A stretch of DNA of 64,000 nt from an uncultured Bacteriovorax sp. Lineage in GTDB: Bacteria; Bdellovibrionota; Bacteriovoracia; Bacteriovoracales; Bacteriovoracaceae. Below are positions 40,705-44,674 of the stretch, piece after piece. The notes beneath the pieces are model-generated. The model saw only the letters and a program-made list of their open reading frames with translations. It searched no databases and was not told the origin of the DNA. The stretch is from positions 17,505 to 81,504 of the forward strand of contig CAZQJK010000009.1 in the NCBI GenBank assembly GCA_964593545.1. The letters run 5' to 3'. Position numbers and translations under genes: made by a program. The first letter of the stretch is position 1; each line of letters opens with the position of its first letter.

Positions 40705-41187
40705 TTAATTTTTTATATCGATCACTAGTCTTCCAGGATTTGTTAAATAGAAAATATCAATTGAATAATCTGCTTTTAATATAACTTCAGTTGATAAAGA
40801 CTCATCACCAACAGGATAGAACTCTATTTTATCTACATACTTAGAATTACCGAATGACCCTATACCACTACCTATTGTCGTATTAAAAAAATCGATGAAT
40901 ATTTTTTTATTTTTTTCTGACTTGTACCCGTAAACTCTTGGAGTACTTGCGGTATCAAAATCAAAGACCAATCTTTCATAACCATTCGCAGGTTGATATC
41001 CGTGGCGTATCGATTTCAAAACTGATCCACTGATGTTATTTGTACTGTGAAAAATTCCACCTTTAAAATAGATTGATCTTTTCTTATCACTGATTTTTCG
41101 AATTCTTTCACTCATTAAATCTTGAGCGCTCGAAACTTGAACGAATAGAACAGAGAGAAATAAAACTAGTATTTTTAAATTAAACAT
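40705..41187 (-). CDS. Exported AMIN-like domain protein
   Basis: Signal peptide, YERLVFDF, PGRLVIDI. Confidence 0.7.
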   Translation of the reverse strand: MFNLKILVLFLSVLFVQVSSAQDLMSERIRKISDKKRSIYFKGGIFHSTNNISGSVLKSIRHGYQPANGYERLVFDFDTASTPRVYGYKSEKNKKIFIDFFNTTIGSGIGSFGNSKYVDKIEFYPVGDESLSTEVILKADYSIDIFYLTNPGRLVIDIKN

Positions 41188-41256
41188 TAAAACCCTTCCA
41201 TGGTCATTAATTATATCTCTATTATTTTACGTGATTGTGAACAAAAAAAGAAGATT

Positions 41257-41940
41257 TTACTTCCAAGTTTTAACTCGACGCATACGCATGGCGCCAATAA
41301 CTCCAAATAAAACCGAAAACCAGAGAATATTTACACTTGTTCCATCTGCTGACTTTTCTTCATCATAAGATGCAATCGCTCTTCCAACCTCTTTTCTCTT
41401 AACTTCATAGACGAATTTATCAGTGTGGTAGTTTGTCAGGTAGTCACCAAATGTAGTTCTCACCCAAATATCGAAAGAACGATATGGAATTTTTCCTAAA
41501 TTTGGATGATCTGGAAACGCCATTGAGATCAATCTAAACTGATCTCCTCTCCCTTCATAATCATACACTCCGAGCTTGTCGTAGTAAGGTCTAAAGCCGA
41601 AGCTATCTCTTTGAACGAGAATTATATACTGTGAACTTAAGGCAAACTCTGGAGCATTTGGATTCTCATAGATGAGCTCCTGCCACTCTCCGCCTTCATA
41701 GTGAATGGTAAAAACATTTTTATTAACGAGGTATCGATTTCCAATACCAGCACTTTTTAAAATTTTAAATGAGGCCTCGGTAAGAATTTTACCCTCGTGA
41801 TCCTTCTTGTATACCTGCCCTAAGTATTCACCTAAGATTACACCATCAGCTTCATTCAGCTGCTTCTTCATTGGTATAGGGAAGATCTGAGCAGCCAAGC
41901 TCGTCATTGTAATTATGGATAGTAGTAAGAGTTTCTTCAT
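41257..41940 (-). CDS. Exported protein with C-terminal membrane anchor
   Basis: Signal peptide MKKLLLL, C-terminal TM plus basic tail RMRRVK. Confidence 0.75.
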   Translation of the reverse strand: MKKLLLLSIITMTSLAAQIFPIPMKKQLNEADGVILGEYLGQVYKKDHEGKILTEASFKILKSAGIGNRYLVNKNVFTIHYEGGEWQELIYENPNAPEFALSSQYIILVQRDSFGFRPYYDKLGVYDYEGRGDQFRLISMAFPDHPNLGKIPYRSFDIWVRTTFGDYLTNYHTDKFVYEVKRKEVGRAIASYDEEKSADGTSVNILWFSVLFGVIGAMRMRRVKTWK

Positions 41941-41967
41941 TAAGAGCCCAGTCATAGATTCAATGAC

Positions 41968-41999: not shown

Positions 42000-44564
42000 T
42001 TAGTCGGAGACTTCAATATTTATGACATCAAAGTCACTAAATATCGGGTGGTTATCTATTACGATGAGGGTATTTCCTTTACTTGATAACCCAATCATAA
42101 GATCCCGTATTCGTACTAATTCCTTTATTGAGAGACCATAAGAAATATCGGTAAATATGAGTAGAGAATTCTCTAAATCTTTTTGCAAAGTATTTAAAAA
42201 CTTAACTCTCAATCTCTCTCCTCCCGATAGTGAAGGAAGTGTACGGTCCAAAGTAAGATAGCCTAAGTTAAGAAGCTTTAGATACTCCACAATTCTTTTT
42301 AATTTGGGTGTTGATCTAATGTGTTCAAAAAGTTCAACGACTGGAGTGTTATAAGCCTCAACAATTGTATACTTACCATCTGAAATATTTGAATAGAACT
42401 TATTAAGCTTCTTTCCCTCGCAATCCTCACATGGAAAGCTAACATCTTCTAAAAATTGCATATCGATTTCGATAATACCTTTTCCTTCACATGTAGGGCA
42501 TTTTCCTAAATCTGAGTTTGATGAGAAGTGACCATCTTTGAGACCTAAGCTTTTTGAAACAGGAAGAGTTGCATAATATTTTCTGACAAATGGAGAGATT
42601 CCAAGCATCGTACCAACTGTTGATCGTCCTGAGGCTCTTTCAATATTTGTTTCGTAAACAATTATATTTTCAAAATTAGTATACTTAGAATACTTTCTAA
42701 TTTTATATTTAACATCGTAATTCTTTTTTTCGTCGAAGTGTCTTGAATTAAGATCATTGGCAACTACATCGATAATAAATCTTTTCGAAAAAGACTCTCT
42801 AAATGATTTTACAGTCGAGACAACACCGACAGGAATTGAAAGTTTCTTAATTTTTTTGTGCTCAAACTCGATATCCGACAATTCAATAAATGACTTCGCC
42901 TTCTCCGGTACATATTTTGGAGATTTCTCAATTGCTTTTTTCTTATACGGCCCCTGATAGATGATATCACCACCGAGATGTCCTGCTCCTGGCCCAACTT
43001 CAATTATCCAATCAGAAGCTTTTTGAACTTCTCGAGCATGATCGACAAGAACAAGTGTATTATTTGTAGCTAACCTTTTTAAATACTTCACAAGAGTTAA
43101 TTGTTCATTTTTATTTAAACCTAGACTTGGCTCATCTAAAATAAAAAGAGAACCCGATCCTTGATAACTTAAGTAGCGGACAAGTAAAGACTTTTGATAT
43201 TCGTTAGACTCCAGCTCTTTAATTTTTTTAGTAATTTGAAATGATCCTAAACCAAACTCTAGAGCAAGATTAAGTTTTGAAACAATTCTATCAATAATAA
43301 CTTCTTTCCCTGATATTTTAAGATCACTTAGCAGCTGACTTAATTCAGAGATATTCATTTTAAGTAGTTCACCATATTTGGGAAGGCCAGAATTACTCTT
43401 ATACAAAGCTGATTTCTCGCTTATACGGGTTCCATCACATAATGAGCAGATTGAATCAGTTTGAATTGATCTTAGAAATATTCTAACACTTCTCTTATAG
43501 CGTTTCTCCTCCATCCAAGATAGCATTTCCAGAATGCCAGGGAAGCTGCCTTCACCACCCAGAAGAATTGGGAATACTTTCTTCTCAACTTCAAAAAATG
43601 GAACAGTTAATGAGATATTCTTCTTTTTCAATATCGCTTTAAATGATTTCTCATATTGATTAAATTTACTATATGAAAGAATTGAAATGGCCCCGTCATT
43701 AATTGATTTTGCGGGATACTTAACTAACTTATCTCGACTATAGTTAAGTACGGAACCGTAACCCTTACACTCGATACAAGCTCCAACGCCATTAAAGGGT
43801 AGAAGTTCACCAATTTCTCTAACAGGGCTTATGCCTTCTTGTTTACACTCAAAGCATATTCTTTCCGACTCAATTTTTATATAATCATATTCTCTTCGAG
43901 TTTCATTAAAAACCAAGAGCATCGCACCTATCTTACCAAGGAATGGAAATTCTAGAAGCTTTTTACCAACAGAAGAAATTGATTTCCCCTTAATCCTAAA
44001 AAGTTCCCAATATTGATGGTCACTATCAAATTCAGAAATACCATGGTCATCTGTTTTATAACTTCTAAGTGGCAGACCACTAATATTCTCAGTGTAAATA
44101 TTCTTGTCTATTAAAATATGAATAATATCACTATCGCTTGTAACTAAGTGTGAGCATTGCTCGACGAAGTAATCCACTCCTTCCTGATATTTTTCTCCAT
44201 GAATTGGACATTTCAAGGGATAGTCATCAAAATATAATTTAGCGATATCCATCGTTAGTTCAAACTGATCTGATAAATTTAACCTTGAGCCAACAATTGG
44301 ATTATGTTGAGGAAGTATCCAAACTGGCAACACTGGAGATATCGAATCGACATCAGCACTCTGTGGTACACGGTCAAAGAAAGTAACACTTGATGGAAGA
44401 GAGTTCAAGAATCGCCTCTTTGATTCATTTGCAAGAGTATGAAATACCAATGATGACTTTCCAGAGCCCGAAGGACCAACCACACATGTGATTTTATCCA
44501 TAGGAAAATCTACTGAAATATTTTTAAGATTATTTGTTTTACATCCGCGTATACTTATCTTCAC
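42000..44564 (-). CDS. UvrA-like ABC ATPase, one site degenerate
   Basis: [17 protein letters not shown], Zn fingers, [15 protein letters not shown]. Confidence 0.85.
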
Positions 44565-44616: not shown

Positions 44617-44645
44617 AAAAAAAAAGGTCCAACAACGTTGGACCT
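44617..44645 (-). terminator. Terminator of rplM-rpsI
   Basis: AGGTCCAAC-N3-GTTGGACCT followed by a T-run on the minus strand. Confidence 0.9.
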
Positions 44646-44674
44646 CTTTAATATTTTCAAAAATAAAAAATAAA

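Follow-up and report, generated by a model that had tools for sequence, protein, structure and literature searches.

A UvrA paralogue of Bacteriovoracaceae that keeps a complete proximal ATPase site and has lost the distal one

Why would a bacterium that has a complete UvrA keep a second one in which half of the ATPase machinery is gone? The question is raised by a minus-strand open reading frame (ORF) at 42000-44564 of the window, as we call the whole 64,000-nucleotide stretch that was analyzed, from an uncultured Bacteriovorax sp. (GenBank assembly GCA_964593545.1, contig CAZQJK010000009.1, positions 17,505 to 81,504 of the forward strand). The ORF is intact, starts with GTG at 44564, stops at 42000-42002, and encodes a UvrA paralogue of 854 amino acids (aa); a GTG start is also present in a same-genus homolog (G123), and the N termini across the paralogue family can be aligned from residue 3. 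A sequence-only reading of the locus had called the product a UvrA paralogue with one whole composite ATPase site erased, and had taken the asymmetry to be selected rather than a sign of decay. The assignment to UvrA was borne out by the equivalog model TIGR00630, which matches at 336.1 bits and thus does not reach its cut-off of 729.8. Pfam finds the ATP-binding cassette (ABC) Walker A region as well as the UvrA DNA-binding domain (PF17755; aa 278-340, 33.7 bits, above the cut-off of 23.2).

In UvrA, the proximal site is composed of ATP-binding domain I and signature domain II, and the distal site is composed of ATP-binding domain II and signature domain I (PMC12796330); the sequence-only reading had assigned the motifs to the two sites in the same way. 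Motif positions were set by alignment to the canonical UvrA of the same genome, and the resulting features are as follows.

42000..44564, minus strand: whole gene, UvrA paralogue (TIGR00630, 336 bits; AlphaFold2 [AF2] predicted local distance difference test [pLDDT] score, 87.8; best Foldseek match, 2r6f_A).
44451..44477, minus strand: Walker A-I, proximal, intact, GPSGSGKSS (canonical GPSGSGKSS), aa 30-38; lysine in 170/170.
44307..44309, minus strand: Q-loop I glutamine Q86, proximal, intact, invariant.
43845..44210, minus strand: zinc module 1 (Zn1; C119/H122...C237/C240) around a remodeled 117-aa domain at the UvrB-binding position.
43437..43778, minus strand: zinc module 2 (C263/C266...C373/C376) around the insertion (DNA-binding) domain, PF17755; cysteines invariant.
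43200..43214, minus strand: signature I remnant, distal, LESNE (canonical LSGGE), aa 451-455; serine in 124/170, second glycine in 41/170.
43125..43148, minus strand: Walker B-I, proximal, intact, LFILDEPS (canonical LYVLDEPS), aa 473-480; aspartate and glutamate each in 170/170.
43038..43040, minus strand: H-loop I histidine H509, proximal, intact; 170/170.
42780..42809, minus strand: Walker A-II remnant, distal, SFRESFSKR (canonical GVSGSGKST), aa 587-595; no glycine-rich loop.
aa 636-643: Q-loop II remnant, distal, VYETNIER (canonical ELDQSPIG).
42420..42500, minus strand: zinc module 3 (C689/C692...C712/C715) and beta-hairpin of signature domain II; cysteines invariant.
42216..42230, minus strand: signature II, proximal, intact, LSGGE (canonical LSGGE), aa 779-783; serine and glycine each in 170/170.
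42141..42164, minus strand: Walker B-II remnant, distal, LLIFTDIS (canonical LYVLDEPT; family ancestor hhhhEN), aa 801-808; catalytic glutamate in 0/170.
42045..42062, minus strand: H-loop II remnant, distal, VIDNHP (canonical TIEHNL), aa 835-840, followed by 14 residues to the C terminus.

Two complete composite sites are expected of a class I UvrA; the paralogue has the proximal one only, with five of five proximal motifs intact and five of five distal motifs lost. All of the strings on which the sequence-only reading relied lie on the motifs it had named: GPSGSGKS (aa 30-37), ILDEP within LFILDEPS, and LSGGE on the intact side, and KSFRESFSK (aa 586-594), FTDISYG (aa 804-810), and LESNE on the lost side. 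Beyond the motifs that it had listed, H-loop II and Q-loop II are also lost, and H-loop I and Q-loop I are kept. Its statement that the zinc-finger pairs are retained also stands: all 12 ligand positions of the three zinc modules are present, with no or hardly any variation among 90 homologs.

The asymmetry is a property of the family and not of one protein. Among 170 paralogue-family sequences, to which all residue counts given here refer, the Walker A-I lysine, the Walker B-I aspartate and glutamate, the H-loop I histidine, the Q-loop I glutamine, and the serine and second glycine of signature II are each present in 170/170. On the distal side, the catalytic glutamate of Walker B-II occurs in 0/170 (asparagine in 150, aspartate in 13, serine in 6, and glycine in 1), the Q-loop II glutamine in 0/170, the H-loop II histidine in 5/170, and the Walker B-II aspartate in 15/170, with glutamate in its place in 130. 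Because each proximal residue is found in all 170 sequences, versus none for the distal glutamate and glutamine, the pattern of a kept proximal and a lost distal site is not due to chance. No homolog has a catalytically competent distal site. The C terminus is also short family-wide, with a median of 19 residues after the H-loop II column versus 56 in canonical UvrA; the GPEGG...G.IV segment is missing from it, while its counterpart in module I does not vary.

Bacteriovoracaceae are predatory bacteria of marine and freshwater habitats, and the paralogue family is of single origin and restricted to them among the genomes sampled. In a survey of 151 genomes across the phylum, 24 of them from this family, the paralogue (called at >500 bits) was present in 22/24 Bacteriovoracaceae genomes and in 0/127 genomes of other families of the phylum, where the best hits (at most 234 bits) were ordinary UvrAs. 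A search of 5.8 billion proteins returned full-length homologs of 845 to 886 aa, with identities from 80% down to about 39%, and those with names all belong to Bacteriovorax or Halobacteriovorax; a HMMER all-against-library search gave about 60 clusters of single-chain proteins when grouped at 50% identity. The family forms a single clade (Shimodaira-Hasegawa-like approximate likelihood ratio test [SH-aLRT], 100%). Its genomic position is fixed, too: in the loci compared, the paralogue follows immediately after rplM-rpsI, and the order tamB, omp85-family gene, rplM, rpsI, paralogue, a hypothetical gene of about 240 aa, (M10 peptidase gene), AMIN-domain gene, and lon is common to B. stolpii, H. 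marinus, and the window.

The family is under strong purifying selection, and the asymmetry is selected and not the product of decay. Reading frames of about 850 to 880 aa are intact in 22 genomes that span 37 to 80% identity. Nonsynonymous and synonymous differences per site (pN and pS) are quoted in place of a dN/dS ratio, because synonymous sites are saturated even in the closest pair (pS 0.75). Between the paralogue and its nearest relative (80% aa identity), pN was 0.138 and pS was 0.747, a saturated value; for canonical uvrA in the same pair of genomes, pN was 0.056 and pS was 0.69. The paralogue thus evolves about 2 to 2.6 times faster than canonical uvrA at nonsynonymous sites, yet far from neutrally. 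The slowest regions are the N-terminal part of ATP-binding domain I and signature domain II (pN 0.04 each), which jointly build the proximal site as well as the face that binds DNA. Change is fastest in the domain at the UvrB-binding position (pN 0.215) and in the N-terminal half of ATP-binding domain II (pN 0.204), and even these remain well below pS (0.20 versus 0.69 for the latter). The view that selection maintains the asymmetry is therefore upheld by pN far below pS, by the invariant proximal site, and by the fixed genomic position. Neither of the findings that had been named in advance as refuting the sequence-only reading, close homologs with both sites kept or neutral evolution, was obtained.

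The proposal that the distal site was lost in a concerted manner was not borne out. All three of the distal parts considered, Walker A-II, Walker B-II, and signature I, are indeed lost in the window's protein, but about half of the family members keep Walker A-II, and the loss was stepwise. Many members, including some on deep branches, have a textbook Walker A-II (GESGTGKTS, GPSGSGKTS), and many have a near-canonical signature I (LSAGE, LSSGE, and, in one, LSGGE). In the B. stolpii protein, one of those with an intact Walker A-II, the motifs read GESGTGKTS, MSSSE, and IFEN. In a tree of 100 rows, 91 of them from the family, rooted with canonical UvrAs, GxxGxGK[ST] is kept in 43/91 family rows, and parsimony places at least 12 changes in the state of Walker A-II on the best tree and at least 6 on well-supported branches. 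The clade that contains the window's protein (14 rows, fully supported) has lost Walker A-II in 14/14. Losses of Walker A-II and of signature I went in the same direction in 3.7 of 6 independent pairs and in opposite directions in 0.1 (sign test, p of about 0.125), so that the apparent linkage between the two is a trend only. Because all members lack the catalytic glutamate and the Q-loop glutamine and many keep Walker A-II and LSxGE, the distal site of the ancestor was already catalytically dead (Walker B DE changed to EN, with the H-loop histidine and Q-loop glutamine lost) and probably still bound ATP. The binding motifs were eroded later, repeatedly and independently, and most fully in the window's clade.

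The sequence-only reading had proposed a search for a canonical uvrA elsewhere in the genome. One is present on contig 32 (L001 1480-4302; 940 aa; TIGR00630, 1285 bits), so that the paralogue is an extra UvrA and not the sole one. The same genome, the only one in which uvrB and uvrC were looked for, also carries a single uvrB (1050 bits), uvrC, and an Mfd-like ORF. Canonical uvrA accompanies the paralogue in 12/12 paralogue-bearing genomes checked, and it was found in 7/7 Bacteriovoracaceae genomes checked, including both that lack the paralogue. One of the latter (G150) has two full-length canonical-type UvrAs (1335 and 1002 bits). Paralogue and canonical UvrA share only about 23 to 30% identity. 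When 36 canonical and 7 second UvrAs of the phylum were included in a tree, the stem of the paralogue clade was about 2 substitutions per site long and the tree did not fix its point of attachment; we make no claim as to duplication or transfer.

The canonical UvrA of Bacteriovoracaceae shows a peculiarity of its own. It has lost the Zn1 cysteines, with SPVTG, SHVTG, or SPTSG in place of the CxxC of the second pair and often aspartate in place of the first cysteine. In two other families of the phylum, the canonical UvrA retains Zn1 in the form GCAECG or GCSKCQ, and the paralogue keeps four of four Zn1 ligands.

Structural prediction agrees with a folded protein of UvrA type. The AF2 model of the whole chain (90 homologs) has a mean pLDDT of 87.8, a predicted template modeling (pTM) score of 0.79, and no disordered segment. 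ATP-binding domain II itself, at a pLDDT of about 85 to 92, seems to be kept as a folded domain. The paralogue lies closer to class I than to class II UvrAs in both fold and sequence. The top Foldseek matches are the class I structures 2r6f_A and 3uwx_A (template modeling score relative to the query [TMq], 0.76; 2r6f_A, E = 1e-57), and class II structures follow at TMq 0.57 to 0.65 (UvrA2 2vf7, 0.64; Ecm16, 0.57); a sequence search of the PDB gave the same ranking, with 270 to 284 bits for class I (3pih, 284) versus 241 to 248 bits for class II. The former P-loop is modeled as a glycine-free turn of 3 residues between a strand (582-586) and a helix that starts at residue 590, and we infer from this geometry that the remnant of the window's protein cannot bind phosphate.

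The remodeled domain is the 117-residue region enclosed by Zn1. Searched against PDB sequences, a profile of this region retrieved none of the UvrAs, even with E relaxed to 10. Folded alone, it reaches a pLDDT of 94.4, and its only likely Foldseek matches are UvrAs, although weak ones (2r6f_A, E = 0.04, TMq 0.43; 3pih_A, E = 0.18, TMq 0.41). We read it as a remodeled descendant of the UvrB-binding domain. It has a conserved motif of its own, PxRSF...FxExDxYWELFRxK, and a remodeled domain of this kind suggests that coupling to UvrB has been altered or replaced.

We propose that the paralogue is a DNA-binding ABC ATPase that runs on its proximal site alone and has been selected to do so, beside canonical UvrA, UvrB, and UvrC, and we give this reading a probability of roughly two in three. 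It would be a second, vertically inherited UvrA-type protein specific to Bacteriovoracaceae that retains the DNA-binding parts of UvrA and one working composite ATPase site per chain. In the ancestor, with its distal P-loop and LSxGE, ATP would probably have been held as a permanent ligand; P-loop and signature would then have eroded in several lineages, furthest in the window's clade, where ATP-binding domain II may serve as a structural scaffold only. The protein would form a dimer on duplex DNA through signature domain II, the zinc hairpin, and the insertion domain, and a single ATP cycle at the proximal site would time binding and release.

Engineered mutants offer models for both stages. 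In G. stearothermophilus (Bst) UvrA with the distal Walker B substitution E854A, the distal site still binds nucleotide tightly and the proximal sites turn over, whereas no distal nucleotide is bound in the distal Walker A mutant K643A, the proximal ATPase of which goes up from 0.1 to 1.4 per second when native DNA is present and reaches 0.3 per second with lesion DNA (PMC6486640). By analogy, the family ancestor (Walker B-II EN, P-loop intact) would resemble E854A, with distal binding but no hydrolysis, and the window's protein (no P-loop) would resemble K643A, with an empty distal site and proximal turnover only; because of these resemblances, a dimer timed by the proximal site alone appears moderately likely.

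Several observations pull the other way. In C. thermocellum (Ct) UvrA, the distal Walker A substitution K647A left both sites empty in the presence of the ATP analog AMPPNP and the dimer in its basal state (PMC12796330). Because that mutant loads no nucleotide, a natural protein without a distal site would need compensating changes, and when a conserved substitute for the ATP bridge was sought in the conservation of the window's clade, none was found. The wedge of ATP-binding domain I in Ct-UvrA probes the duplex through Y62, Q65, and F66, and Y62A impairs the ATP-dependent loading of UvrB (PMC12796330); in the paralogue the column of this tyrosine holds serine, and no family member has tyrosine there, with conserved FF(W) aromatics following next. 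Dimerization and DNA binding of the paralogue, moreover, are predicted from conservation alone. A protein latch, in which a salt bridge would join the remnants of P-loop and signature in place of ATP, was considered and rejected, as the conservation of the Walker A-II remnant within the clade (0.42) is below the mean of the protein (0.54).

What the ATPase would be used for is a more tentative matter. A role outside nucleotide excision repair, as the sequence-only reading had suggested, may exist. The paralogue might be a proximal-only DNA sensor that recruits a partner other than UvrB through the PxRSF...YWELFRxK domain, in a surveillance pathway separate from excision repair; we consider this specific version doubtful. 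Candidate roles would be the handling of protein-coated (histone-bearing) chromosomes and the discrimination of own from prey DNA during growth inside the prey.

A rival view, that the paralogue acts within nucleotide excision repair, as a heterodimer partner or regulator of canonical UvrA, as a competitor for DNA, UvrB, or Mfd, or as an asymmetric sensor that tunes repair, seems unlikely to us, even though it can draw on the presence of both proteins in every paralogue-bearing genome checked for canonical uvrA. ATP-binding domain I, which forms the dimer interface of UvrA (PMC12796330), and signature domain II are the two parts of the paralogue with the highest conservation, and the Zn1 patterns of the two proteins are complementary, the cysteines being lost in the canonical UvrA of the family and kept in the paralogue. 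Against it stand the stem of about 2 substitutions per site that separates the paralogue from canonical UvrA, the low identity given above, and the absence of the paralogue from two genomes of the family. Decay, in which the gene would be a duplicate on its way to a pseudogene with no function of its own, is very improbable: half of the ATPase machinery is gone, the C terminus is truncated, and the gene evolves faster than canonical uvrA at nonsynonymous sites, but this view is already contradicted by the intact frames in 22 genomes, by pN far below pS, by the invariance of the proximal site and the zinc ligands, and by the fixed synteny.

Class II UvrAs such as DrrC and Ecm16 suggest yet another function, the clearing of drugs, adducts, or proteins from DNA without UvrB or excision. 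Ecm16 acts without UvrB, UvrC, and UvrD (PMC9328131), the paralogue strongly conserves the regions that bind DNA in UvrA, and its UvrB-binding domain is not recognizable by sequence. Yet class IIa proteins have neither Zn1 nor any of the UvrB-binding domain (PMC9328131), whereas the paralogue has Zn1 and a 117-aa domain at that place, and its neighbors are genes for ribosomal proteins, outer membrane proteins, and Lon protease, with no biosynthetic or resistance genes nearby. We therefore regard a drug protection role as quite unlikely, and proximal-site-only function beside canonical UvrA remains our preferred interpretation.

With the class I UvrAs of E. coli, G. stearothermophilus (2R6F/3UWX), T. 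maritima (3PIH), and C. thermocellum (9GX*), the paralogue shares the order of the chain, the fold (TMq 0.76), the tandem ABC modules that are each split by a signature domain, the three zinc modules, the PF17755 insertion domain, signature II with its zinc hairpin, and a complete proximal site. It differs from them in scoring less than half of the equivalog cut-off, in having about 37 fewer C-terminal residues, in not keeping the wedge tyrosine, and in a domain at the UvrB-binding position that matches theirs weakly in fold (TMq 0.43) and not at all in sequence; the whole family lacks the distal catalytic glutamate, H-loop histidine, and Q-loop glutamine, and the window's clade also lacks the distal Walker A and signature. 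The class II proteins (D. radiodurans UvrA2, 2VF7; Ecm16, 7SH1; DrrC) are likewise second UvrAs of similar length (about 840 to 870 aa), and independence from UvrB, or altered coupling to it, is a probable further likeness. The anti-echinomycin activity of Ecm16 requires ATP hydrolysis (PMC9328131). The published classes I, IIa, and IIb (PMC9328131) do not fit the paralogue, since both Zn1 and a UvrB-binding domain are missing from class IIa.

A parallel for the asymmetry comes from membrane transporters. CFTR, TAP1/2, TM287/288, and Pdr5 are ABC proteins with one consensus and one degenerate site, and a degenerate site of this kind lacks the Walker B glutamate and the H-loop histidine, faces an altered signature, and yet often keeps the P-loop and holds ATP stably. 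The paralogue family shows the same pattern of one degenerate site, with 170/170 for the proximal residues versus 0/170 and 5/170 for the distal glutamate and histidine. The transporters are membrane proteins, whereas the paralogue is a soluble, DNA-binding tandem ABC protein, and the window's clade has lost the P-loop as well. ATP binding at the degenerate site is plausible for family members with GxSGxGK[ST]; in the window's protein, where the glycine-rich loop is gone, it is unlikely.

Full-text literature searches found no account of this family, nor of any UvrA in these bacteria whose distal site is degenerate by nature. The division of labor between the two ATP sites of UvrA in the search for damage, its recognition, and its handover to UvrB is still debated, and the question has been studied only through crippling engineered point mutants (PMC6486640, PMC12796330). 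Those mutants (Case et al. 2019, PMC6486640; Ct K647A, PMC12796330) are single substitutions in a protein built for two sites, both of which were termed essential in PMC6486640. By contrast, selection has maintained the natural one-site state throughout an entire bacterial family, and for that reason the protein must be adapted to having a single site. The family would thus hold natural, selected counterparts of both mutant types within one clade, a separation-of-function series for the ATP sites of UvrA, and a biochemical comparison of its members could reveal what the proximal site is capable of by itself and how a missing distal nucleotide is compensated for. If the paralogue is a sensor with a partner other than UvrB, the repeated loss of the distal P-loop would mean that distal nucleotide is dispensable for the core mechanism of UvrA. 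The family also adds a lineage-specific protein of DNA metabolism to Bacteriovorax and Halobacteriovorax. Predators of these genera are under consideration as living antibacterials.

Most other families of the phylum have a different second UvrA of about 855 to 875 aa, a gene that the window's family lacks. It matches TIGR00630 over positions 2-290 and about 395-924, with about 100 model positions absent, at about 1100 to 1290 bits summed over the two pieces. Orthology of this gene with the paralogue was considered and rejected: its contexts differ (it is preceded either by pdxA and a phosphomutase gene or by a Fur-like gene), its TIGR00630 score is high, and in the tree it groups with canonical-type UvrAs.

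Downstream of the paralogue lie two genes (40705-41955, minus strand) whose products have hydrophobic N termini that suggest export. The first product (232 aa) has no Pfam match and ends in a hydrophobic tail, and the second (160 aa) has an AMIN domain; a gene for an M10 metallopeptidase of about 598 aa separates the two in B. stolpii and H. marinus and is missing in the window. A functional link with the paralogue was considered, and nothing in the features of these genes points to one. Membership in a defense system was likewise rejected, since PADLOC gave only generic ABC matches (mad3, 79 bits, with the Walker A region as its best stretch) and the neighborhood is one of housekeeping genes.

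Between rpsI and the paralogue, the window has one further feature.

44621..44649, minus strand: terminator-like hairpin with a 13-bp stem and a T-run.

A GC-rich inverted repeat with a T-run, judged by eye, occurs at the same place in 7/7 loci of relatives examined (two pairs of which are near-identical), about 15 to 60 nucleotides upstream of the start codon. This placement suggests either read-through or a promoter that overlaps the terminator, and the paralogue may possibly be expressed by partial read-through from the ribosomal-protein operon.

The library search also returned many proteins of about 1570 to 2340 aa (P0145 and about 90 others) that carry two UvrA units in one chain, and these were frequent among the best-scoring hits.

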